From: a virus
Taxonomy: Duplodnaviria > Heunggongvirae > Uroviricota > Caudoviricetes
IMG/VR virus record: IMGVR_UViG_2740892219_000010
Location: 1-64,000 of that record
DNA length: 64,000 nucleotides
Direction: 5' to 3' (one strand)
Under the pieces are notes generated by a model that ran no database searches, was not told where the DNA came from, and saw only the letters and a program-made list of their open reading frames with translations. Below, in pieces: positions 42,265 to 55,665 of this stretch. Position 1 is the stretch's first letter. Every line of letters begins with the position of its first letter. The position numbers and the translations under genes were made by a program.

Positions 42265-42528
42265 ATGAAAAGCGATCACGACATAATCACCAGAGAAGAA
42301 ATGGTCGAGCTGACGGGAAGCCCACTTAAATCAAAGCAATGTGAGGCTCTTCGCCGGGCTGGAATTTTCTTCATGGAAAGGGCTGACGGACACCCAAAAA
42401 CAACCTGGGGCCATTTCATGAACCCAATAAAATTTCGCAATTTACAGGAGGTGACGACGCGAAAAGATGATGAACCTGATTTTGGAGCAATATTTAATGG
42501 CCGGAAAGAGAAAGAACCCAGCAGATAA
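42265..42528 (+). CDS. excisionase-like protein (positional)
   Basis: 87 aa immediately upstream of and overlapping int; start preceded by ATGAGGAAAGACC. Confidence 0.4.
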   Translation: MKSDHDIITREEMVELTGSPLKSKQCEALRRAGIFFMERADGHPKTTWGHFMNPIKFRNLQEVTTRKDDEPDFGAIFNGRKEKEPSR

Positions 42529-43513
42529 CTGGATGCCGCCTCGTGTTTACCAGGGCAAAGCGGCCTACGAATTCAGGAATAAAGATAACAAAGCGATACG
42601 CCTGTGCGCATTGGATGCACCACGATCAGCCGTATGGCTGGCATATGAAAAAGCGGTCGGTGACGAAAAAGAAAGAAATACTTTTCAGGCGCTCGCGGAA
42701 CAATTCATGACCTCCCCTGATTTTATGGATTTGGCAGTCGAAACCAGGAAAGACTACACAAAATATTCCGGAAAAGTTCTGCCTGTCTTCGGGAAGATCG
42801 ACCCGGATAAAATCAAACCTGAACATATTCGGCGCTATATGGATCAACGCGGTTTATCAAGCCGAACTCAGGCAAACAGGGAAAAAAGCTTTATGTCCCG
42901 GGTATTCCGTTGGGGTTATGAACGAGGTTATGTTCAGAGGAATCCTTGTCAGGGAGTTAAACAGTTTAAAGAGACAGCTCGCGAACGTTATATTACGGAT
43001 GAAGAATATCAGGCCGTTTATGAAGTGTCTCCTGACGTCGTTCGCGTGGCAATGGAGATTGCCTACTTATGCGTGGCCAGACAGAGTGATGTACTTTCAT
43101 TGCAGAAAGACCAACTGTTCGATTCCGGGATCTACATTCGTCAGGGAAAAACCGGCGTTAAGCAAATCAAAGCCTGGTCGCCTCGTCTGCAGAAAGCGAT
43201 AGCTCTGGCTCGTTCTCTGCCATTAAAAACGGGAATCAGTAGTCTGTTTGTGATTCATCAAACTACCGGTGGCAAGTACACCCGTGATGGTTTTAACTCT
43301 CGTTGGCGTGATGTCAAAGCTGCGGCACAGGAAAAATATCCTCATCTGCAAATAGACTTCACATTTCATGATCTGAAAGCAAAAGGTATCTCTGATCTGG
43401 AAGGCAGCCTGGAAGAGAAGCAAGCAATTTCCGGGCATAAGAACCCACGACAGACAGCAGCATATGACCGAAAAGTTAAAGTAGTGCCCGTAGTTGGTGG
43501 CCAGAGAAAATGA
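42467..43513 (+). CDS. int: tyrosine integrase (lambda Int family)
   Basis: 348 aa; C-terminal catalytic region (FHDLKAKGISDLEG...GHKNPRQTAAYDRK); transcribed toward the tRNA-Leu core. Confidence 0.85.
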   Translation: MMNLILEQYLMAGKRKNPADNWMPPRVYQGKAAYEFRNKDNKAIRLCALDAPRSAVWLAYEKAVGDEKERNTFQALAEQFMTSPDFMDLAVETRKDYTKYSGKVLPVFGKIDPDKIKPEHIRRYMDQRGLSSRTQANREKSFMSRVFRWGYERGYVQRNPCQGVKQFKETARERYITDEEYQAVYEVSPDVVRVAMEIAYLCVARQSDVLSLQKDQLFDSGIYIRQGKTGVKQIKAWSPRLQKAIALARSLPLKTGISSLFVIHQTTGGKYTRDGFNSRWRDVKAAAQEKYPHLQIDFTFHDLKAKGISDLEGSLEEKQAISGHKNPRQTAAYDRKVKVVPVVGGQRK

Positions 43514-43516
43514 ATG

Positions 43517-43551
43517 ATGATGCGTCCAGAGAAAAATCATCTTCGGACGCA
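43517..43551. repeat. inverted repeat GATGCGTCC-N17-GGACGCATC immediately after int
   Basis: 9-bp perfect arms; adjacent direct repeats CATCTTCGGA x2; possible att arm or Int-binding elements. Confidence 0.4.
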
Positions 43552-43575
43552 TCTTCGGAAATGAGAAAGAAGATA

Positions 43576-43601
43576 CAAAAAAACCACCCGAAGGTGGTTT
43601 C
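43576..43601 (-). terminator. rho-independent terminator (minus strand)
   Basis: ACCACC-CGAA-GGTGGT hairpin followed on the minus strand by a 7-T run; downstream of the tRNA-Leu 3' core. Confidence 0.55.
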
Positions 43602-43643
43602 ACGACACTGCTTATTGCTTTGATTTTATTCTTATCTTTCCCA

Positions 43644-43698
43644 TGGTACCCGGAGCGGGACTTGAACCCGCACAGCGCGAACGCCGAGGGATTTTAAA
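43644..43698 (-). other. 55-nt 3' segment of tRNA-Leu(UAA) (anticodon loop to CCA): attachment-site core
   Basis: Minus strand reads TTTAAAATCCCTCGGCGTTCGCGCTGTGCGGGTTCAAGTCCCGCTCCGGGTACCA, matching the 3' part of enterobacterial tRNA-Leu(UAA) as recalled; upstream sequence cannot form the D-arm or acceptor stem. Confidence 0.7.
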
Positions 43699-43777
43699 AA
43701 CTATCAACCACCATTTATAAATCATAACCTTATGATTTTATTAACTTTGCAAATAGCTCTATACGATGCCATTTGAA

Positions 43778-43820
43778 TCTATTGTCACTTTTTATCGCCA
43801 CTTTTTACCCTCTATTGTCA
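43778..43820. repeat. direct repeats TCTATTGTCA (x2) in the AT-rich arm next to the P2-like int
   Basis: Copies at 43778-43787 and 43811-43820 with CACTTTTTA x2 between them; typical of Int arm-type binding sites. Confidence 0.4.
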
Positions 43821-44806
43821 AAAGGGTTCAATTCAACTGCAGCCTCTAAATGACCTGGAGCAAAATGCGCATAACGCATAGTCATTTTTATATCGCTATG
43901 CCCCAGTATTTTTTGCAACACAAGAATATTTCCTCCCCGCATCATAAAATGACTGGCAAACGTGTGACGTAGCACATGAGTTAATTGCCCATCAGGAAGC
44001 TCGATCTTCGCTCTCTTAATTGCAGCGTCAAAAGCCTCATAACATGGTGAAAATAACGCTCCTCGTTTTTTAGGAAGCATAGCCTGCAATTGAGGTGAAA
44101 TCGGTACAGTGCGGTTCTTCTTTCCTTTAGTTTTAACAAATGTGATTCGACCGGGCAGCACTTGAGATTGCTTTAATCCTTCAGCTTCACTCCACCGAGC
44201 ACCAGTCGCAAGCCCAATACGGACAACAACCCCCAAATCTTTATTCCGTGACTCATCACACGCAATCAGAAGGCGTTCAATCTCATCTACATACAGAAAC
44301 GCCAATTCCTTTTCTTCCTCACGAAACTTGCGAATGCCAGTCAGGGGGTTTTCACCAGACCACTCCCCAAGGCGCTTCAGTTCGGCAAAAACAGCATGTA
44401 GATATGACTGCTCGCGATTAACGGTTGCTTCACTAAGTTTTTTCTTCCCCTTGGGATTCCATTCTCCTGATAACCTCCTTTCCCGATAAGTAGCAAACAT
44501 ATTTTTGTCAAACTGAGAAGCAAATGGATCTCCCAGCCTAGAACAAATAGACTCAAGTTTGACTTTGCGCTCTGCACCAGAGGACAAGGTTTTACCGTAC
44601 ATCTCAAACCAACGAGCAACCAACTCAGAAAGACGAGGACCAGAACCATCTTGAAACTCGTCTCCAACTCTACTATTCATTAAACGGCGCTCATAAGAGA
44701 GCGCCTCACTTTTTGTCGCAAACTGTTTACGAATACGTTTTCCCGATGCCCCGTAAGGATAACATTCGCAAAGCCATTTACCTGATGGAATCTTACGAAC
44801 CGACAT
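43805..44806 (-). CDS. int: tyrosine integrase (P2/186 Int family)
   Basis: 333 aa; catalytic box HVLRHTFASHFMMRGGNILVLQKILGHSDIKMTMRYAHF; transcribed toward the tRNA-Leu core. Confidence 0.85.
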   Translation of the reverse strand: MSVRKIPSGKWLCECYPYGASGKRIRKQFATKSEALSYERRLMNSRVGDEFQDGSGPRLSELVARWFEMYGKTLSSGAERKVKLESICSRLGDPFASQFDKNMFATYRERRLSGEWNPKGKKKLSEATVNREQSYLHAVFAELKRLGEWSGENPLTGIRKFREEEKELAFLYVDEIERLLIACDESRNKDLGVVVRIGLATGARWSEAEGLKQSQVLPGRITFVKTKGKKNRTVPISPQLQAMLPKKRGALFSPCYEAFDAAIKRAKIELPDGQLTHVLRHTFASHFMMRGGNILVLQKILGHSDIKMTMRYAHFAPGHLEAAVELNPFDNRG

Positions 44807-44811
44807 TTTAG

Positions 44812-45159
44812 TTACTTATCACATAAATCAAATGCAGCCTTAGTGACATCTCCCAGATTCTTTTTTAACCCTGGGGCGGCATCATTATCCAGCCAAAATG
44901 GATTATTGTTATCTAACGGTAACGCACCAAATGTTTTACCTTTTATTCGAGCCAAACCTGTAAGCGCATATAACTTATTATCGTCAAAATTCATCACATA
45001 AGGATTACCATCTAGACACTGTAACTGAACCTCATCAGTATTAAATGGCCATACCCCATTGAAACTCTCACGTTCAATATTTTTAAAAGGCATTGCGACG
45101 GCAGAAAAAGAAAACATAGATAAAAAAGTAACTAATAGTTGAACCTTTTTTACTTTCAT
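44812..45159 (-). CDS. secreted/periplasmic cargo protein
   Basis: 115 aa with N-terminal signal peptide (MKVKKVQLLVTFLSMFSFSAVA); RBS GAGGT; between repressor and int. Confidence 0.5.
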   Translation of the reverse strand: MKVKKVQLLVTFLSMFSFSAVAMPFKNIERESFNGVWPFNTDEVQLQCLDGNPYVMNFDDNKLYALTGLARIKGKTFGALPLDNNNPFWLDNDAAPGLKKNLGDVTKAAFDLCDK

Positions 45160-45188
45160 ACCATTACCTCAATTTAGCTCAAGTAAGA

Positions 45189-45839
45189 TTACAAATTAAA
45201 AAACATCCTAGAAATGGCACCACCTACCAAACCCCCTACGCAGATAAAGAATATTATTTCTTTTGGATAAAGTCGGATTAATTCTGAAGCACGAAGTCGG
45301 ACTTCTGGTAAGGTCGAATTCTCTGTGTTGCTTGATACCGATTGTTGCTCTAACCACGACAATGCAGACTGCAACTGAGAACGAGTAAGATCGTTTAAAC
45401 GTCCTGTACCGAAATTGATATGGCAATACCGCAGAAGTTTTTGTCGAAGTCCACAGTCTTCACTGTTACGTAGTAATAAACTTACAAGAGCCTTACAGGC
45501 ATCATGATCTTTACATCGCTCAAGCATTGCATGCAGAAAACTCTCCGCTGTTTTATATTGATTTACTGTCATATCATCAATACCAGCTACACCAATCTCC
45601 GCATGTACTTTTTGCCAAATAATAAACGCTTCAGTATTGCTAGCTTCTGCAATAGCAGCAACCAAGCTATTTAGCTCCTTACGCTGAGCCTTAAGCAAAG
45701 GGCGATCGTCATCATCATTATTCGAAGGGATTGCGATATTGACGGTATGAGAACCATCATATCGCCCTATCTGAATATTCTTTTCGTGAAAATCACGCCC
45801 AGCAACGCGATTGTTTGAACCGTTTGAGTTGACGGCCAT
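45189..45839 (-). CDS. C-tail-anchored membrane cargo protein
   Basis: 216 aa; RBS GGGAGG; single C-terminal TM (IIFFICVGGLVGGAISRMFF); N-terminus NNRVAGRDF repeats the repressor C-terminus NNRIAGRDY. Confidence 0.55.
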   Translation of the reverse strand: MAVNSNGSNNRVAGRDFHEKNIQIGRYDGSHTVNIAIPSNNDDDDRPLLKAQRKELNSLVAAIAEASNTEAFIIWQKVHAEIGVAGIDDMTVNQYKTAESFLHAMLERCKDHDACKALVSLLLRNSEDCGLRQKLLRYCHINFGTGRLNDLTRSQLQSALSWLEQQSVSSNTENSTLPEVRLRASELIRLYPKEIIFFICVGGLVGGAISRMFFNL

Positions 45840-45854
45840 GTCACCTCCCTACTA

Positions 45855-46259
45855 TCACCTACCCTTAGTTTCGTTATAGTCACGCCCAGCGATACGGTTA
45901 TTACCGCCAGAAATATTTAACTCACGTCCTGATGGCTGAGTTTCCTTTTCACTGGCCGCACCTTTTAAAGCCCCGATCACCGCGTTTTTCACATCTAACG
46001 AAGCTGCTCGAAAGCGAGTAATCAACTCCTGCTCATCATCGTTATAAGTTTCAGGTGAGTGAATTCCCAACACAACATACTGAACATCAAGGCCAAAACG
46101 AGACAGCGCTGCCAAATACGCAGCATCAGGAAAGCTATCTCCTTTCTCATATCTAAGCTGAGTTAGCTTTTTGACTCCACCAATGTCGCTCATAGCAACT
46201 TGACTAAGTCCCAATCTTTCCCTTTCCTCACGCAACCTCTGACCAATATCATTTTTCAT
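45855..46259 (-). CDS. immunity repressor (P2 C / 186 CI-like XRE HTH)
   Basis: 134 aa with N-terminal HTH (LGLSQVAMSDIGGVKKLTQLRYEKG); divergent from the cox-like early operon. Confidence 0.7.
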   Translation of the reverse strand: MKNDIGQRLREERERLGLSQVAMSDIGGVKKLTQLRYEKGDSFPDAAYLAALSRFGLDVQYVVLGIHSPETYNDDEQELITRFRAASLDVKNAVIGALKGAASEKETQPSGRELNISGGNNRIAGRDYNETKGR

Positions 46260-48830: not shown

Positions 48831-51653
48831 GTGGCAACGGAGTACATCAGAAACTGGCAACAACCACGCCATGCAGTCGGTCGCGAGGGAACGGGGGAGC
48901 CTGTCCGCCCCTCCCTTCTTTCTTCCTGGCTGGATGCCTACCGGGCAGAGAACGAGCGCCGCCAGGAAATGGCTGATGCGGCGTTCTCCGCCACGCCGCT
49001 GGGCAATTTGATTAATAAAAACCTGGACGCACAGGAAAAACAGGACAAAGCCATCACACTGGCAAGAGAAGCCAGAAAACAGGCGTGTGGCGCGGTGGAT
49101 GAAGCAATTGCCGCACTGCGCCTGCTGCCGTCCTATCTGCGAGATCCGCTTATCCGCCATCTCTCTTTCCTGCGCAAAAAACAGGAATCCGATCGTCAGA
49201 AAGGCAAAAAGAGCTGGCAGGCTGAACGCTACGCGCGCGGAACCCTGCGCAAAATATTCGAACGTCTGGAGCGCACCGACAGACGCTGGCTGACACCGGG
49301 TTATCGCTCCCTTGCCGGGCGTGAACGCCTGGATGATTTACTTTACCTGCCGCAGCTCAACAAACACCAGATACAGACGCTGGCCGTCATGACAGCGGCG
49401 ATGTTCAGCAGCACCTTCGAAAAACTCTGCGATGACTTTGGCGCGACCGATGGCGAGCTGACCATGGATATAACGCTGAAGGCGTATCAGATGCTGGCCC
49501 GCATGGCGTTACATCTGCACACAGTGCCGCCGCATTATGACGCACTGACAACAGACAAAGACCGGAAGAACGAACCGGACACGGAGCTGCTGCCGGGTGC
49601 AATCCTCCGCCTGACCTGTGCGGACTGGTGGAAACGCAAATTGTGGCTTTTACGTTGCGAATGGAGAGAGGAACAACTCCGCGCTGCCTGTCTGGTTTCC
49701 AGAAAAACATCCCCCTATCTGAGTCAGGACGCATTAAGTGAATTTCGCGCACAGCGCGAGAAAACACGCGATTTCCTGAAAAGTTTCATGCTGGAAAATG
49801 AAGACGGGTTCACGATTGATCTTGAGACGGTGTATTACGCGGGAGTAAGTAACCCGGTCCACCGTAAGGCAGAAATGATGGCCACCATGAAGGGGCTGGA
49901 ACTTCTGGCCGAAGCCCGTGGCGACAAAGCGGTATTTCTGACCGTTACCTGCCCGTCAAAATATCACGCAACAACGGAGAACGGTCATCCGAATCCCAAA
50001 TGGAACGGCGCCACCATGCGCGATTCCAGCGATTACCTGGTTAACACTTTTTTTAAGGCAGTCCGCAAAAAACTGAACCGCGACGACCTGCGCTGGTATG
50101 GTATCCGCACGGTGGAGCCACACCATGACGGCACCGTGCACTGGCACATGATGGTCTTTGCACATCCTGAAGAAATCGACAGCATCGTGGACATCACCCG
50201 TGATATTGCCATTCGCGAAGACCGCCACGAGCTGGGCAATGACATAACTCCGCGCTTTAAGGCAGAGTACGTCGACGGTTCGAAAGGTACGCCGACCAGC
50301 TACATCGCCACCTACATCGGAAAGAACCTGGACAGCCGCGCCGTGGATGGCATTGACCCGAAAACAGGCAAGCCACGCGTTGATCACGAAACCGGAAAAT
50401 CAATGACCGAGAGCGTGGAACGCGCCATCGGCTGGGCGCGCCTTCACCGCGTCCGCCAGTTCCAGTTCTTTGGTATCCCCTCCCGTCAGGTATGGCGTGA
50501 ACTCCGCCGCCTTGCCAGTCAGATGGCCCGCAACCCGGAAGGTCCACAACGTCTGGAAAATGACGCAATGGATGCGGTACTCGCTGCCGCTGATGCCGGG
50601 TGTTTTGCCACCTACATTGAGAAACAGGGGGGCGTACTTGTTCCACGCAAGGATTACCTGATTCGCACCGCCTACGACCTCGCAGAAGAGCTGAACGATT
50701 ACGGCGAGCAAAGCGTACAGATTTACGGGATCTGGTCGCCACAAATCGGGGAATCTTCCCGCGTGTGCACGCACCCGGATAACTGGAAGCTGGTAAGACG
50801 TAAACCGGAAGCGGAAGACAGCGCCCGCGAAAATGGTTTTGACCTTCAGGGCGGCCCTGCCGCCCCTTGGACTCGTGGCAATAACTGTCCCCGTGTACAG
50901 GAAACGGACAACAACGGGACAGAACAGCCGGAAGAACGGCCAGCACCGTGGCCGCAGCTTCCTGACGGCGTTGAAGTGAATGAATGGATGCGCTCACTGA
51001 AACGGCACGAACGCCGGGCGCTGATGCGTTCGCTGCGTGACAAACAGGCAAAAAACAGCAGTGATGAAATGCAGAACTGGACACAGAGCCGCAAACAGCC
51101 GCGGCCTTTGCCTGATAACCACGAGTTACTCGCTAAAGAATGGCGGGAGTCTGCCGAATCTCTCGGCCTGCATATCGGTAAACAACAGATGCTGCACCTG
51201 TTACGGGGCGGCAGTCTGTACGTTGACGGCAGCATCATTGCGCCGCAGGGATATGAAATTGTACGTAAACCGGATACCCGACCGGACAGCCGAATCACGC
51301 AGCTCTGGCAGCGCCTGAGCCGTAATCACAGCGTAAGCAGCACGGAGATCCGCCATAACCCGGTTTCCAGCTATCTGAAACAGCTCGGTGCATCAGACCC
51401 AGAAGCCGCCGCACGCCTGGCATCCACACTTCAGCAGGACCAGAACACCATGAAAACCCCCGTTACCGTGCTTTCTGACATGCTGCGCGCCATCCGTGAC
51501 GCAGAGCACGCACAGAGAATCAGTGAAACCACTGAACGCGCCCACCGCAAAGCAGACCTGCTGCGGGGTGGCCTGACCCGTGGGAACAAAAAACAGACAG
51601 AAACGGGATTCACAAATCCCGTAAATGAGCAAAAAACGCGCCGCGAAATATGA
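48831..51653 (+). CDS. replication initiation endonuclease (P2 gpA-like rolling-circle Rep) with long C-terminal extension
   Basis: 940 aa; HUH-type motif (TVHWHMMVFAH) and Tyr motif (SYIATYIGKNLD); P2 A is ~760 aa, so ~180 extra C-terminal residues. Confidence 0.8.
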   Translation: MATEYIRNWQQPRHAVGREGTGEPVRPSLLSSWLDAYRAENERRQEMADAAFSATPLGNLINKNLDAQEKQDKAITLAREARKQACGAVDEAIAALRLLPSYLRDPLIRHLSFLRKKQESDRQKGKKSWQAERYARGTLRKIFERLERTDRRWLTPGYRSLAGRERLDDLLYLPQLNKHQIQTLAVMTAAMFSSTFEKLCDDFGATDGELTMDITLKAYQMLARMALHLHTVPPHYDALTTDKDRKNEPDTELLPGAILRLTCADWWKRKLWLLRCEWREEQLRAACLVSRKTSPYLSQDALSEFRAQREKTRDFLKSFMLENEDGFTIDLETVYYAGVSNPVHRKAEMMATMKGLELLAEARGDKAVFLTVTCPSKYHATTENGHPNPKWNGATMRDSSDYLVNTFFKAVRKKLNRDDLRWYGIRTVEPHHDGTVHWHMMVFAHPEEIDSIVDITRDIAIREDRHELGNDITPRFKAEYVDGSKGTPTSYIATYIGKNLDSRAVDGIDPKTGKPRVDHETGKSMTESVERAIGWARLHRVRQFQFFGIPSRQVWRELRRLASQMARNPEGPQRLENDAMDAVLAAADAGCFATYIEKQGGVLVPRKDYLIRTAYDLAEELNDYGEQSVQIYGIWSPQIGESSRVCTHPDNWKLVRRKPEAEDSARENGFDLQGGPAAPWTRGNNCPRVQETDNNGTEQPEERPAPWPQLPDGVEVNEWMRSLKRHERRALMRSLRDKQAKNSSDEMQNWTQSRKQPRPLPDNHELLAKEWRESAESLGLHIGKQQMLHLLRGGSLYVDGSIIAPQGYEIVRKPDTRPDSRITQLWQRLSRNHSVSSTEIRHNPVSSYLKQLGASDPEAAARLASTLQQDQNTMKTPVTVLSDMLRAIRDAEHAQRISETTERAHRKADLLRGGLTRGNKKQTETGFTNPVNEQKTRREI
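51604..51621. promoter_or_regulatory. palindrome CGGGATT-CACA-AATCCCG (copy 1)
   Basis: 7-bp inverted arms; inside the 3' end of the A gene; second copy 73 bp downstream. Confidence 0.45.
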
Positions 51654-51676
51654 AGCGCGCACAAAACAGGCAAAAG

Positions 51677-51694
51677 CGGGATTTCAGAATCCCG
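51677..51694. promoter_or_regulatory. palindrome CGGGATT-TCAG-AATCCCG (copy 2), upstream of parM
   Basis: Same arms as copy 1; 36 bp upstream of the parM start; candidate centromere or operator element. Confidence 0.45.
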
Positions 51695-51729
51695 TAAACG
51701 ATTAATTAATCAACATAAGGAAAATCGAC

Positions 51730-52689
51730 ATGAAAATTTGCATCGACGACGGCTCCACCAACATCAAGCTGGCATGGACTGAGAACGGCGAACGCCGCAA
51801 CGCCATCAGCCCGAACAGCTTCAAGTCGGAATGGTCTGCGCCGTTCGGTGGCTCGCAGCCTGCGAACTACCTGCTTGATGGCGTGCGCTATGGTTTTGAT
51901 CCGGTCAGCGATCGCTTTGTCCAGACGACCGACACGCAATACCAGTACAGCGATGTGAATGTAATCGCCATTCACCACGCACTGGTCAAATCAGGCATCA
52001 CACCACAGGAAGTGGATGTGGTTGTCACCCTGCCACTGAGCGAATATTTCGACACAAACGCACAGCCGGACATGGCCAACATCAACCGCAAAAAAGCGAA
52101 CGTCATGCGCCCGGTGGAGTACCAGAACGGTGAGGCATTCACTATCCGTAACGTGCGGGTTATGCCTGAATCCATTCCGGCTGGCTTTAAGGCACTGGCT
52201 GACATGAGTCCGTTTGAATCCCTGCTGATTGTGGATTTGGGCGGAACCACGCTGGATGTGGCAAAGGTTCAGGGGCAACTGGCAGGCATCAGCCAGGTGT
52301 TTTGCGATCCACACGTAGGCGTTTCCCTGATGGCTGATGCCGTGCTGTCGGTGATGGCCACTAACGGTATGCGTACCAGTCACCACATCGCCAATACCAT
52401 TATTGAGCACCGTCACGATGAAGCCTGGCTACGCCAGCACATTCACAATGACGCGCATTACAACAGCCTGATGGCGGTTATTCGTGAAAAGGAGGAGACA
52501 CTGAAACAACGCGTGATCCGCGCACTCGCGGGCTTTTCGGGTTACGGGCGGGTGCTGGTTGTCGGTGGAGGAGCGGAGATTGTGGCACCCGCAGTCCGTG
52601 AAGTCTATGGAGTCAATGCGAATTTCATCACAGACGGGGTGCCACAGTTTGCTCTGGTTAACGGTCTGTACGCTATGGATAAGGAGTAA
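51730..52689 (+). CDS. parM: ParM/StbA-family actin-like segregation ATPase
   Basis: 319 aa with strong collinear similarity to plasmid R1 ParM as recalled (ICIDDGSTNIKLAW; QYSDVNVIAIHHAL; LIVDLGGTTLDVAKV; VVGGGAEIV). Confidence 0.8.
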   Translation: MKICIDDGSTNIKLAWTENGERRNAISPNSFKSEWSAPFGGSQPANYLLDGVRYGFDPVSDRFVQTTDTQYQYSDVNVIAIHHALVKSGITPQEVDVVVTLPLSEYFDTNAQPDMANINRKKANVMRPVEYQNGEAFTIRNVRVMPESIPAGFKALADMSPFESLLIVDLGGTTLDVAKVQGQLAGISQVFCDPHVGVSLMADAVLSVMATNGMRTSHHIANTIIEHRHDEAWLRQHIHNDAHYNSLMAVIREKEETLKQRVIRALAGFSGYGRVLVVGGGAEIVAPAVREVYGVNANFITDGVPQFALVNGLYAMDKE

Positions 52690-52695
52690 CCCTCC

Positions 52696-53007
52696 ATGGC
52701 GACATTAACCAGAAGAATAAGTTTCTATCTGAAGCCAGCCGCCGTCAAGAACGAAGGCGAAGCATGCGCCTAGCTGGACAGCCTTACACCAGAAGCCCGC
52801 AAAAGCGGCCAGCGCGTGGCTTTTCTGGCCGGGCTGGCACTTCTGAAGATGAATCCGGCAGAGGCTTACCGACTGGCTGCATGGGCTGATGATGAAGCGT
52901 TATCAGTGACACAAACCAGGACAGAATCCCCCGCGTCACAGCCAGTATCAACCGCACAGATAACCAGTCAGATAGCAGGGAATATCCGGGCATTATTTCC
53001 TGAATGA
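52696..53007 (+). pseudogene. parR: parR-like gene interrupted by an in-frame amber codon
   Basis: ATG 52696 with RBS AAGGAG; 25 codons (MATLTRRISFYLKPAAVKNEGEACA) then TAG at 52771-52773; same frame continues open to 53007 with a ParR-like segment (AFLAGLALLKMNPAEA...NIRALFPE). A GTG at 52816 could restart translation without the N-terminal domain. Confidence 0.45.
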
Positions 53008-53067
53008 CGAATTTGACGGCTTTTAATTTTATCGGGGTGCACTGTCGCCCCGCACGAGGAAAACACG

Positions 53068-53592
53068 ATGAAAAAATACGAATACATGCTAATGAAAGAA
53101 GCACTGCGGGCTGGTCTGGCTCCCTGTCCTGTATCCGTAGAAGCTGTTGTTGGGAACACGATTTTCCGAACGCTGCGAAATCGCGTATCCGTGAAGATGA
53201 TTCACCAACCACCCAAATCTACCAGCATGATCTATCTGCCGCTGCCCGAGGCTATCAAACTTATGCGTTCGCTGAAATTTGCGATTTGGATGCAGACACA
53301 ACTCAACAAAGCGGTGCAAAACACCTTCGTCAAGAAACTGATGCCGGAGCTTGCTGCCAGACGTGCAAAATGTACCAGACCCGCACTTCAATTTGATCTG
53401 TCATTGATTCAACAAGCTACGGAGGCAGAACTGTACCGCCTGTCACCTCTCCGCGATGCTCACACGGAAGCCTCAGAAATGTTCCGGCTCATGTTTCAAT
53501 TTAATTTTGCCGTTCGACGCACACGCGTTCAGGTCAATCGCATGATGCAGGCGCAGGAAGAGCTGGCGCAACACAAAGGAGACAACCAGTGA
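53068..53592 (+). CDS. hypothetical protein (P2 A-to-cos hotspot cargo)
   Basis: 174 aa, RBS GAGGAAAA; no recognised family. Confidence 0.45.
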   Translation: MKKYEYMLMKEALRAGLAPCPVSVEAVVGNTIFRTLRNRVSVKMIHQPPKSTSMIYLPLPEAIKLMRSLKFAIWMQTQLNKAVQNTFVKKLMPELAARRAKCTRPALQFDLSLIQQATEAELYRLSPLRDAHTEASEMFRLMFQFNFAVRRTRVQVNRMMQAQEELAQHKGDNQ

Positions 53593-54128
53593 GCAAGATT
53601 GACTATCAGGCACTACAAATGGCAGCAGAACGGGCAATTCCGGCAATGGAACGCCTGTTAATATTGCCAGTTGATGATGATTTGTTAAGCGAACAGGAAC
53701 TTAAAGATTGCGGTGTGGATATTGACGCGATCAACACCTTCAGACTTCTGGCTGGACCGGAAGACATGCTGGCACTGCTGGATGAACTGGAAACAGCAAA
53801 AAAGCGCATCGCTGAACTGGAAAAAATCGCAACTGACCATGCACTTAAATTCCAGAAAGCACAGGACGCATTAAAGTATGCCGCTTTGCTGCATAGCCGA
53901 ACGGCGCAACAAACCAATAATTTTGCAGTATTGCTTTCGGACATAAGCGAATATTTCATTAATAACGTATTTCAGCCCTTGCGATACGAGCGAGACGTTG
54001 AAAGAGCCATCATAAAGGCTGGCGGAAAAGCATTGTGGCAGGAGAAGCACGAGGAAAGAACGCATCAGCTAAGTGATGTAAATAGTGGATGGTTATGCCC
54101 ACTGACAGAAGGTAAAAAGAACACCTAA
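53589..54128 (+). CDS. hypothetical protein (possibly Ead/Ea22-like; hotspot cargo)
   Basis: 179 aa, overlaps the upstream stop; N-terminus MSKIDYQALQMAAERA resembles the start of Ead/Ea22-like phage proteins as recalled. Confidence 0.4.
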   Translation: MSKIDYQALQMAAERAIPAMERLLILPVDDDLLSEQELKDCGVDIDAINTFRLLAGPEDMLALLDELETAKKRIAELEKIATDHALKFQKAQDALKYAALLHSRTAQQTNNFAVLLSDISEYFINNVFQPLRYERDVERAIIKAGGKALWQEKHEERTHQLSDVNSGWLCPLTEGKKNT

Positions 54129-54129
54129 T

Positions 54130-54618
54130 TTCCTCTCAAACCAGGGCGATAATCGCGCATCGCCCTGCTGCACAATAGTGCACAAATTTGCACAATTTTT
54201 TTGAACGACTTTTTGCCCTTCCGGCCCGCGTGGCGGCTGGATCCGTCAAGGATCCGTGCGTGCACAAAAAAACGCGTTTTTTCTGCGCGCAGGTGACGGG
54301 GGAACAGCCCGCGTTTCAGGGGGTAAATAGCATCCCCTGAACGATGTCGCAGAGACACAACAGAATGGCCGTATTTCTCACGCTGAGCGTGAAAAATACG
54401 TGAGGGATTCTGATTTGATGGGGTGAAAGGTAAGGCCGTCAAAATCGCACTGAGGCGGCGAGAACATGCAGTCAACGCGGTGGGATTGAGTAAGAGTCTG
54501 ACCGTCGATGGTGGCGATAAACTGGAAGGCGTCGTGAAATTATCTGACTGATACAGGAGCTGGAGAGTCGGGGCATAAATTTTTATGCCCCGGCGAAGCA
54601 GCAGACAAGCGAAGCGCG
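54130..54618. other. non-coding region in the position of P2 cos / packaging site
   Basis: ~490 bp without convincing ORFs between the cargo genes and portal Q; contains three tandem 10-bp repeats TGCACAAWWK (54171-54200) and palindromes; cosN not identifiable by eye. Confidence 0.4.
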
Positions 54619-55665
54619 TCAGGATGTGGGCTGGGTGTCTAACAGTGCGTAAGGGTTAAAGCGGATCACCTCTTCGCCAAGCCAGTCATTGATGTGCTTC
54701 ATGGCCTCCATGACGGGCATCAGCTCGTTAATTGCGTAAACCCGCGCGGCCTTCTCCACATCACCAAACGCACTTTTTTCACCCGGCATCGCCCCCATCA
54801 GTTGCGGCGGAACGCGGTGCGCAGCCAGCACATCATCACGGGATGCCGCCTTAACATTCATGAACTCATCCTTTGCGGTGATCTGCTGGAACGGCAAAAT
54901 TTGCACCCCCTCTTTGCCCCCGTTGGGCGCATGAATGAGCACGTTTTTAAACGCACCACCACCACGCGCACCCTGTAGCGTTTCTTTCAGGGAGTCCATG
55001 CTTTCGCGGTTTACCTGCGCTGCACCGATGTAGATGATGCACCCGGCGTGGGATCCATTGTCGTAATACAGTTTTCTGAACATGTCCGCCGAATGAGACA
55101 GGCTGGCCGAGAGTAATGCGCCGAGATATTCCGGCATGCCGTAGATTTCCTGGTTAATGTCAGGATTCATCAGGTGGCACACTTTGCCAGGGCGAAACTG
55201 AAACGCGTCCTTACCATCCTGCACATACCACCATGATTCAAGATCGCTTCCGCGTCGCATGTATTTCGCCAGGGCGTGCCGTAATTTAAGCGGTTCGCCG
55301 AGCATATTGCTTCGAAGCTCAAGAAATGCGTTACCGAACACAAACCAGTCCAGCGCCAGCGCCGAGAAATCCTGCCGGGAAAGCAGCGGGTGCGGAATAT
55401 AGCAACCGAGCAATACATTGCGCTTAAAGTAAAGCGCAGACTGATGCCAGGACGTTTGCCGGGCGGATCTTGCCAGACCGTACCAGTCCACCGGGGTTTC
55501 ATACCACCGCCCGTTATCAGCACAGTACATATTGTCCAGCAGGTCATGCCCGGTCAGGCGATAAGGACCATCAAATGTGAATGCACTGAGCGATGATTCT
55601 TTCCTGAGCGCATCAGCGAGATCAATGCGTGAACTCATGCGCACTTTTTTATTTTTTCTGCTCAT
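54619..55665 (-). CDS. portal protein (P2 gpQ-like)
   Basis: 348 aa (P2 Q is ~344 aa), divergent from the O-N-M-L operon, adjacent to terminase P. Confidence 0.85.
   Translation of the reverse strand: MSRKNKKVRMSSRIDLADALRKESSLSAFTFDGPYRLTGHDLLDNMYCADNGRWYETPVDWYGLARSARQTSWHQSALYFKRNVLLGCYIPHPLLSRQDFSALALDWFVFGNAFLELRSNMLGEPLKLRHALAKYMRRGSDLESWWYVQDGKDAFQFRPGKVCHLMNPDINQEIYGMPEYLGALLSASLSHSADMFRKLYYDNGSHAGCIIYIGAAQVNRESMDSLKETLQGARGGGAFKNVLIHAPNGGKEGVQILPFQQITAKDEFMNVKAASRDDVLAAHRVPPQLMGAMPGEKSAFGDVEKAARVYAINELMPVMEAMKHINDWLGEEVIRFNPYALLDTQPTS

Follow-up and report, generated by a model that had tools for sequence, protein, structure and literature searches.

The element in the window, as we call the whole stretch of 64,000 nucleotides that was analysed, is an integrated P88-like (Xuanwuvirus, Peduoviridae) prophage of E. 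coli and belongs to the P2 family. The hotspot considered here is anchored on the left by the gene for the 940-residue replication endonuclease gpA (48831–51653, + strand; Pfam Phage_GPA, E = 1.2e-129) and on the right by the gene for the portal protein gpQ (54619–55665, − strand; Pfam Phage_portal, E = 4.5e-18); in homologous E. coli prophages the gpA counterpart is annotated 'replication endonuclease', and in homologous loci the gpQ counterpart is annotated as portal. Downstream of gpA lies parM (51730–52689, + strand), encoding an actin-like plasmid-segregation ATPase which is intact as judged by its Pfam matches (StbA_N, E = 3.8e-82; ParM C-terminal domain, E = 9.9e-67) and which also matches PHROG 691 'partition protein' (E = 2.7e-88). 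Candidate parC sites are two palindrome-bearing 42-nt repeats at 51587–51701. The next gene, parR (52696–53007, + strand), is a pseudogene in this copy: when aligned with the intact parR of E. coli A8 and of phage P88, the frame that starts with the ATG at 52696 shows a single TGG>TAG change at codon 26 (W26*; stop at 52771–52773), and its C-terminal remnant still matches Plasmid_stab_B (E = 2.7e-07) and PHROG 2515 (E = 4.6e-27).

Two open reading frames on the + strand, ORF1 (53068–53592, 174 aa) and ORF2 (53589–54128, 179 aa), occupy the entire variable interval from parR to the conserved cos/portal flank. ORF1 extends from an ATG at 53068 to a TGA at 53590–53592 and has the sequence GAGGA 8–12 nt upstream; ORF2 extends from a GTG at 53589 to a TAA at 54126–54128 and has AAGGAG 8 nt upstream; the two frames overlap in a GTGA at 53589–53592. 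Similarity to other P88-like phages restarts at about 54169 (query positions 2520–2971 of that comparison), and at the interval's right edge a consensus scan picks out a hairpin with a T7 run after it that resembles a terminator (54178–54203, + strand; GTGCACAAATTTGCAC AATTTTTTTG). A sequence-only reading of this DNA had described parM, a parR pseudogene and two overlapping frames of 174 and 179 residues in a variable hotspot between gene A and the portal gene of a P2-like phage, and in these respects it is borne out. Its interpretation as a whole is partly supported, with the hotspot part standing and the rest not.

The content of the gpA–gpQ slot differs among related P88-like phages, even between near-identical prophages, which is the outcome of the comparison across relatives that the sequence-only reading had proposed. 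E. coli A8 and RM11911 have loci that are near-identical to this one. The same slot holds the toxin–antitoxin modules YafO and Doc/Phd in other prophages and, in Chuche, a DUF3800 gene that matches PDC-M04A with an E value of 2.5e-35. This cos-proximal hotspot was described by Rousset et al. (2022; PMC9122126) as enriched in defence genes, with validated defence systems located there. The ORF1–ORF2 arrangement is already listed in their Table S5A, but it is absent from the validated systems that they report (PMC9122126). Our literature search on the P88/Xuanwuvirus hotspot found nothing specific. We read 53008–54169 as the cargo slot of the gpA–gpQ hotspot in this P88-like prophage, as one part of a fuller explanation, set out below, that we regard as evenly balanced between right and wrong.

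ORF1 is a real gene under purifying selection and not a chance reading frame, because its dN/dS against five homologues is 0.14–0.28, with dS values of up to about 2. The encoded protein is basic (pI 10.2) and arginine-rich, and the motifs APCP, YLPLP and VRRxRV are invariant across the family. The AF2 model (pLDDT 60) predicts a small N-terminal β unit followed by a three-helix bundle, for which a fold search returned only generic helical-bundle matches. Searches against Pfam, NCBIfam, PADLOC and, by sequence, the PDB gave no match, and the best PHROG, phrog_4116, was non-significant (E = 0.3). ORF1 is also not a diverged Ea22, as hhalign against Ea22 profiles gave a probability of 0.2%. The family comprises eight clusters among 5.8e9 proteins, a profile search of 1.84e9 representatives found three sequences, all from the family itself, and no relatives were present in 185,579 species-representative genomes; among complete E. 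coli genomes, 29 of 5426 carry the gene. By these searches ORF1 is a true orphan and rare, and its family appears so far to be restricted to the P88-like hotspot of Escherichia and Shigella.

The sequence-only reading had assigned neither protein to a family and had suggested HMM and structure-based annotation, which leaves ORF1 unmatched but places ORF2, by sequence, in the Ead/Ea22-like family (PF13935). The match to PF13935 has an E value of 2.9e-21 and a score of 76.9 bits (gathering score 27) and aligns residues 2–121 with positions 1–133 of the 139-position model. ORF2 also matches PHROGs 250 and 368 and has 2860 homologues at E ≤ 1e-5; among the 120 matches listed, nearly all carry the annotation PF13935. 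It is 100% identical to a protein named 'ead/Ea22-like family protein' by NCBI that is present on 54 contigs, and the RefSeq annotation agrees. The protein is acidic (pI 5.1) and its N-terminus carries the Ea22-family motif MSxI[DN]YQAL. In the AF2 prediction, an N-terminal helical module (residues 1–55, with helices at 6–25, 35–40 and 45–54) is followed by a central coiled coil formed by a long helix (residues 57–109) and by a small C-terminal domain, the α/β part of which is of low confidence. Lambda Ea22 has the same three-part plan of a short N-terminal region, a coiled coil and a separate C-terminal domain (PMC10834534). ORF2 has no match in the PDB by sequence at E ≤ 1 and nothing significant in Foldseek, so its C-terminal domain is not that solved for lambda Ea22, with which it does not align. 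The C-terminal domains are reported to differ among Ea22 proteins (PMC10834534), and this mismatch therefore does not exclude membership of PF13935. The protein is a mosaic: residues 1–90 are similar to Ea22 of Stx, lambdoid and P1-like phages (63–71% identity for the Stx and lambdoid phages), residues 53–179 resemble Xuanwuvirus P884B11, and at least five N-terminal modules are found on one Ea22 core with its C-terminal domain. The GC content of ORF2 (45%, compared with 54–56% in core phage genes) points to a foreign origin.

ORF1 is preceded by a conserved non-coding leader or junction (53005–53067, + strand; TGAATGACGAATTTGACGG...CGGGG-N-CCCCG...GAGGAAAACACG), which is nearly invariant across loci although their ORF1 proteins are only 45–56% identical. 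The gene upstream of the leader varies by locus, being parR, zf-ClpX, SSB or a small membrane ORF, and the leader occurs in 55 E. coli genomes, compared with 29 for ORF1. In E. coli 1190 it adjoins a Doc/Phd module on the opposite strand. A structured RNA or riboswitch was considered and rejected, with a fold z value of −0.28 relative to shuffled sequences and hairpin substitutions that break pairs and do not compensate; an Rfam search of the leader gave no match. The leader has no σ70 consensus match, and no TGT-N12-ACA box of an Ogr-type late promoter lies upstream of ORF1; neither type of promoter is thus recognized here.

ORF1 and ORF2 are not an obligate pair, nor are they a conserved two-gene system as 'coupled' in the sequence-only reading had implied, since each gene occurs without the other. 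Among 35 loci with ORF1 homologues, which are mutually non-independent, an Ea22-like gene lies directly downstream in 24; a stub of only 20–38 residues of Ea22 is found in six, a DUF7446 gene takes the place of Ea22 in four and a methyltransferase is inserted in one. An intact ORF1 persists beside an Ea22 stub of 28 residues, and a deletion fusion ORF1::Ea22 exists elsewhere. Ea22 of the ORF2 subtype usually occurs without ORF1, directly after parR, where the ORF2-type core and C-terminal domain are found alone in 173 index blocks (P0047) and in 44 (P0028). ORF1 homologues and ORF2-type Ea22 genes form chains with a zf-C4_ClpX gene, SSB, an orphan type II methyltransferase and a DUF7446 gene, with all members co-oriented and with 4-nt overlaps throughout. 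A similar co-oriented chain with small overlaps is present in phage D6, in which Ea22-like and zf-ClpX genes accompany the same ∼65-nt leader; this phage has no ORF1 homologue and a DUF4752 gene follows the leader instead. Ea22-like genes, zf-C4_ClpX-like genes and the ∼65-nt leader also occur in co-oriented chains in P1-like phage-plasmids and in the 'ea' regions of P22/ES18-type phages. The start of lambda ea22 likewise overlaps the stop of the gene upstream, as that of ORF2 does with ORF1, but the lambda partner is the TraR-like zinc-finger orf73 whereas that of ORF2 is the orphan 174-residue ORF1. ORF2 also differs from lambda and Phi24B Ea22 in location, lying between parR and cos of a P2-family phage and not in a pL-driven exo–xis region.

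ORF1 and ORF2 are co-oriented with A–parM–parR, and a scan of + strand positions 51600–54128 gave no σ70-like promoter; as this was a simple consensus search, blind to weak or activator-dependent promoters, this absence is weak negative evidence. Operons of the parMR type normally have their own ParR-regulated promoter. Were one present in this prophage, the lysogen would express the cargo, which would count against the early-accessory explanation set out below; the ParR of this copy is truncated. The P2 genes old and tin occupy the same cos-adjoining slot and are likewise swapped between relatives, but they run against the early operon and are transcribed from a mapped start of their own, whereas ORF1 and ORF2 are in the sense orientation with no promoter predicted. 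The analogy with tin/old implied by the sequence-only reading thus breaks down on layout (strand, promoter and terminator). In P2 it is orf91 (DUF3850/ASCH), at the end of the early operon downstream of A, rather than old/tin, that shares the co-oriented layout; ORF1 and ORF2 are like it in position relative to A and in orientation, and would likewise have an accessory function; the genes have no sequence relationship, and in the present prophage parM–parR separate A from the cargo.

The explanation that we prefer, and to which we give an even chance, is that ORF1 and ORF2 are two independently exchangeable early accessory genes in the hotspot slot, with an Ea22-like developmental role. Both genes may have come from the ea/exo–xis-type regions of lambdoid and P1-like phages, with their stock of small early genes chained by translation, and would probably be transcribed as the tail of the A–parM–parR transcript, ending at the 54178 hairpin. 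A position at the tail of that transcript would imply action in early or lytic development and not exclusion expressed from the lysogen. On the model of Ea22 from lambda and Phi24B, ORF2 would most likely oligomerize through its coiled coil and display both the exchangeable N-terminal module and the small C-terminal domain to a host or phage partner; it would act soon after infection or induction and may tune development, either by a bias to lysogeny or by a delay of lysis. Lambda and Phi24B Ea22 favour lysogeny (PMC10834534; PMC7093339), and this role transfers weakly to ORF2 because its C-terminal domain is unrelated to that of lambda. ORF1, the rare and arginine-rich basic protein with a predicted helical fold, would act alone, and its target may be nucleic acid or a host protein.

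Anti-phage defence, with ORF1 and/or ORF2 expressed in the lysogen and excluding superinfecting phages in the manner of P2 old/tin, is unlikely. The slot is a cos-proximal gpA–gpQ site with known validated defence systems (PMC9122126), it varies between near-identical prophages and it holds YafO, Doc/Phd or DUF3800/PDC-M04A elsewhere; the low GC content, the rarity of ORF1 in spite of purifying selection and the variable N-terminal modules of Ea22, which could reflect an arms race, would also suit such a role. The leader could be a regulatory element that permits expression in the lysogen, and in this it counts against the early accessory genes that we prefer. Neither protein, however, matches any family in PADLOC-DB v2 at E ≤ 1 (a library from 2023, with newer systems outside it), and the cargo differs from old/tin in being co-oriented with the early operon and having no predicted promoter. 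The Ea22 phenotype in lambda and Phi24B is developmental, with no exclusion phenotype reported in PMC10834534 or in the abstract of PMC7093339, and a literature search on defence roles of Ea22-like proteins found nothing specific. The co-oriented neighbours in sister loci, SSB and the orphan methyltransferase, are typical phage-benefit genes, and the arrangement catalogued by Rousset et al. is not among their validated systems (PMC9122126). Counter-defence, in which the two proteins would be early inhibitors of the immunity of the host or of rival prophages and the Ea22 modules would track different targets, is slightly less likely still. It would fit the early-operon-like layout and the extreme mosaicism of the Ea22 modules, and an orphan methyltransferase lies in the same chain at sister loci. 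Orphan methyltransferases are a classic anti-restriction device. A 2026 preprint describes some phages in which the anti-OLD protein Oad2 and an EaD/Ea22 protein form a fusion, and its authors suggest that such regions store anti-immunity genes (10.64898/2026.07.10.737580), which would speak for counter-defence; the link is, however, a domain fusion found elsewhere and not homology to ORF1 or ORF2, and neither protein matches a known anti-defence protein in the libraries searched.

ORF1 might instead work by itself as an anti-phage or anti-defence effector of a new kind, with the Ea22-like proteins that usually lie downstream serving as exchangeable sensor or decoy scaffolds. This is unlikely, though were it true the Ea22 family would gain a role in phage–phage or phage–host conflict and would not be purely developmental. 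That the cargo is passenger DNA of a defective prophage, in decay or of no function, is highly improbable: the parR pseudogene in this copy, and the Ea22 stubs and ORF1::Ea22 deletion fusion elsewhere, would be expected of it, but both ORFs are intact with ribosome-binding sites, the low dN/dS of ORF1 holds over a large synonymous divergence, ORF2 is identical to a protein on 54 contigs and the adjoining capsid, portal and terminase genes are intact. A toxin–antitoxin or addiction pair, with basic ORF1 and acidic ORF2 stabilizing the prophage or a plasmid form beside parMR, is rejected on the ground that either gene is found without the other, and we give it hardly any weight. The overlap of the genes, their opposite isoelectric points, the adjoining partition system and the genuine modules (YafO, Doc/Phd) in this slot of other prophages would all suggest such a pair, but 4-nt overlaps are the rule across these gene chains, toxin and antitoxin families gave no match to either ORF, the Ea22 subtype mostly stands by itself and ORF1 is in places accompanied by a stub or by DUF7446 instead. 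The separate occurrence of the genes largely refutes this pairing.

ORF1 and ORF2 are thus most likely early-expressed accessory genes from the lambdoid pool, that is, ordinary cargo, and the finding adds one catalogued cargo arrangement to a well described hotspot; as it stands, it matters little. Location in the gpA–gpQ hotspot alone does not make a gene a defence gene. In a handful of P88-like loci, the cargo that matches defence or toxin models (DUF3800/PDC-M04A, Doc/Phd) is on the opposite strand, whereas the cargo co-oriented with the operon consists of lambdoid-type early accessory chains (zf-ClpX, SSB, orphan methyltransferase, Ea22 and ORF1); the small number of these loci limits the argument from layout. 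Should strand prove to track function across the ∼18,000 loci that Rousset et al. catalogued, orientation would offer an inexpensive means of sorting defence from phage-benefit cargo. ORF1 and the P88-type C-terminal domain of Ea22 are small, tractable targets for work on Ea22.

The gene calls agree in coordinates with the two overlapping ORFs of 174 and 179 aa proposed in the sequence-only reading. ORF1 runs on the + strand from an ATG at 53068 to a TGA at 53590–53592 (174 aa) and ORF2, also +, from a GTG at 53589 to a TAA at 54126–54128 (179 aa). Correctly spaced Shine–Dalgarno sequences (GAGGA and AAGGAG, respectively) precede the starts, and the genes overlap by four bases (GTGA, 53589–53592). 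The dN/dS of ORF1 is 0.14–0.28 against five homologues (synonymous divergence 0.07 to ~2); it is therefore a real gene and not a chance ORF. Pfam matches bear out the described surroundings, with gpA (48831–51653, +, 940 aa; Phage_GPA, E = 1.2e-129) and parM (51730–52689, +; StbA_N, E = 3.8e-82) on one side and the portal gene gpQ (54619–55665, −) as the right flank of the hotspot. The parR gene (52696–53007, +) is a pseudogene, as proposed, with one substitution (TGG>TAG, codon 26) relative to intact parR from E. coli A8 and phage P88.

In more distant relatives gpA has 768–834 aa, compared with 940 aa here (sister loci L007 724–3482 and L010 2802–5755), and a separate ORF of ~150 aa comes next; on this sequence comparison, the last ~170 residues of gpA may be a fused or variable module. 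A 42-nt direct repeat occurs in two copies (51587–51628 and 51660–51701; 79% identical, 73 nt apart), the first within the 3′ end of gpA and the second in the spacer between gpA and parM. Each copy contains the palindrome CGGGATT-N4-AATCCCG, and the repeats may serve as ParR-binding (parC-like) sites or form hairpins in the transcript.

The locus flanks share 92–95% identity with P88-like phages, members of the genus Xuanwuvirus (family Peduoviridae) that include P88, Chuche, Shae_phiSM and P884B11, and the bacterial DNA flanking the prophage is from E. coli. The match to these phages ends at about the parR stop and restarts at ~54169, so ORF1 and ORF2 exactly fill a variable slot. Locus comparison supports the proposed P2-type variable hotspot, as the slot content differs among P88-like relatives: a zf-C4_ClpX gene and small ORFs in P88, a DUF3800 protein (opposite strand) in Chuche, a DUF4760 protein and a hypothetical protein (opposite strand) in an ST131 prophage, a membrane protein in Shae_phiSM, and Doc/Phd or YafO in other sister prophages. 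The slot is the gpA–gpQ hotspot of Rousset et al. (2022; PMC9122126), where a partition system is present in roughly one in four P2-like prophages of E. coli; the ORF1/ORF2 arrangement is not named among the three newly validated systems in the text of that study.

The view that neither protein can be assigned to a family holds for ORF1 but not for ORF2, which matches PF13935 (Ead/Ea22-like) with 76.9 bits (threshold 27); RefSeq names its homologues likewise, and an identical protein is recorded on 54 contigs. The AF2 model of ORF2 (mean pLDDT 67) predicts a confident helical N-terminal module (residues 1–55), a single long helix (residues 57–109) and, at low confidence, a small C-terminal domain, a modeled layout that matches the three-part layout of lambda Ea22 (PMC10834534), although the solved C-terminal domain of the latter is unrelated to that of ORF2. 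Residues 1–90 are similar to Ea22 proteins from Stx, lambdoid and P1-like phages and residues 53–179 to a P88-lineage protein of P884B11; judged by these alignments, ORF2 is a mosaic. The ORF2-type core (RIAELEKIATDYALKFQKAQDALKYA) and C-terminal domain (EYFINxVFQPLRYERDVERAIIKAGGK) occur with no fewer than five distinct N-terminal modules, one of which is a CxxC zinc ribbon.

For ORF1, a genuine orphan, searches of Pfam, NCBIfam, PADLOC and the PDB gave no match, and PHROG only a nonsignificant one (E = 0.3). It falls in eight clusters among 5.8 billion proteins, a profile search found three representatives among 1.84 billion, and there are no relatives in 185 579 species-representative genomes. 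Of 5426 complete E. coli genomes, 29 carry it, in every case on the chromosome, and it is also on 23 IMG/VR contigs; all seven loci inspected lie in the gpA–gpQ slot. ORF1 is basic (pI 10.2, compared with 5.1 for ORF2) and contains the invariant motifs APCP, YLPLP and VRRxRV. Its weak model (pLDDT 60) predicts a small β unit followed by a three-helix bundle, and a structure search with it returned only generic helical bundles. A diverged Ea22 was considered for ORF1 and ruled out. In P0004, a 147-aa protein from an E. coli contig, an in-frame deletion joins residues 1–~120 of ORF1 to the last ~25 of an Ea22-like protein, and the ORF1/Ea22 cassette is therefore decaying in some genomes. The initial observation is thus confirmed and its interpretation partly supported: ORF2 belongs to a known family, ORF1 is an orphan of rare occurrence within an established hotspot, and the arrangement is already catalogued.

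ORF1 and ORF2 are not a dedicated two-gene system. A gene starts at a stop/start overlap after every visible ORF1 homologue, but its identity varies. Across 35 loci with an ORF1 homologue, which are not mutually independent, it is an Ea22-like gene in 24 (with three different N-terminal types), only an Ea22 stub of 20–38 aa in six, a DUF7446 protein without Ea22 in four (e.g. locus L045, 3522–3761) and, in one, an orphan type II methyltransferase placed before Ea22 (locus L036, 2794–3279; PADLOC PDLC03288, E = 1.9e-72). Two complete genomes have a hypothetical gene and the YafO toxin after the stub (one is locus L013, 3198–4181). Conversely, the ORF2-type core and C-terminal domain very often stand alone directly after parR (relatives' proteins P0047, 173 index blocks, and P0028, 44). 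Overlaps of four bases are usual in gene chains of this kind, as where the zinc-finger orf73 of lambda overlaps ea22, and the overlap is thus no evidence of partnership.

ORF1 homologues and ORF2-type Ea22 are found together with zf-C4_ClpX, SSB, methyltransferase and small uncharacterised ORFs in chains of genes that share one orientation; a chain of this kind in the P1-like phage D6 includes a pair of Ea22-like genes plus one resembling zf-ClpX. A non-coding leader of ~65 nt just 5′ of ORF1 (53005–53067; also L010 5938–6000, L012 4001–4072 and L019 4001–4064) hardly varies among loci with ORF1 proteins of only 45–56% identity, and is kept far better than the ORF1 coding sequence whatever gene lies upstream. 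The leader occurs in 55 E. coli genomes and ORF1 in 29; the 26 further genomes have the leader without ORF1, some on ~90-kb plasmids. In D6 it sits 5′ of a DUF4752 gene without ORF1, and in E. coli 1190 it adjoins an opposite-strand Doc/Phd module. Nothing points to RNA structure in the leader (z = −0.28, no Rfam match, no compensatory changes), and it has no promoter consensus. We take it for a conserved junction between modules or for a regulatory site of an unrecognised type; in both cases it marks ORF1 and ORF2 as part of a shared, recombining accessory-gene pool.

P2 old and tin run antisense to the early operon from a mapped start site of their own beside cos, whereas ORF1 and ORF2 are co-oriented with A–parM–parR, a consensus scan of the + strand found no promoter-like site between 51600 and the ORF2 stop, and a hairpin with a T7 run follows ORF2 (54178–54203). 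This difference in layout disfavors an old/tin analogy; in P2 it is orf91 that is co-oriented with A. The only σ70-like site in 51600–54700 (53688–53660, −; TTAACA-17-AATATT, 9/12 matches) sits within ORF2 and points antisense towards ORF1; one site compared with a shuffle mean of 2.9 is within chance expectation. Among the few sister loci compared, the Chuche DUF3800 protein, which matches PDC-M04A (E = 2.5e-35; L004 3088–3894, −), and Doc/Phd toxin-model cargo (L019 4172–4923, −) lie on the opposite strand. YafO (L013/L017) is an exception, being co-oriented with the early operon; the remaining co-oriented cargo is of a phage-benefit type (SSB, orphan methyltransferase), mostly lambdoid early-accessory. 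From this handful of loci, opposite-strand cargo for defence or toxins and same-strand cargo for accessory functions may be a general rule.

The Ea22 proteins of lambda and Phi24B, early pL-operon products, are the sole experimentally characterised relatives; they form tetramers and push development towards lysogeny via a putative partner (PMC7093339; PMC10834534). The reading we favor, with roughly even confidence, is that both ORFs are early-expressed accessory genes: their transcription would be early, ORF2 would form an Ea22-type oligomeric scaffold tuning the lysis–lysogeny balance, and ORF1 would act as an independent basic helical factor. Anti-phage defence is suggested by the hotspot location and the rarity of ORF1, but neither ORF matches a PADLOC model, and we regard it as unlikely. 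Counter-defence, with which the early-type layout, the methyltransferase neighbor, the modular variability and the Oad2-EaD/Ea22 fusions of a 2026 preprint (10.64898/2026.07.10.737580) are consistent, appears rather improbable. Separability and purifying selection together argue against junk DNA, which is very improbable, and against a toxin–antitoxin pair, which is scarcely credible because ORF1 and Ea22 genes occur apart.

The ORF1/ORF2 cargo lies in one of two prophages in tandem. A Gp157/YdaT-type siphovirus integrase (~42493–43509, +) abuts the P88-like integrase (~43801–44802, −) within ~42493–46259, positions taken over from an annotated E. coli region of 98.6% identity. A second cargo position, with a DUF2511 gene and a membrane-protein gene, lies between the P88-like integrase and the C-type repressor (45855–46259, −).
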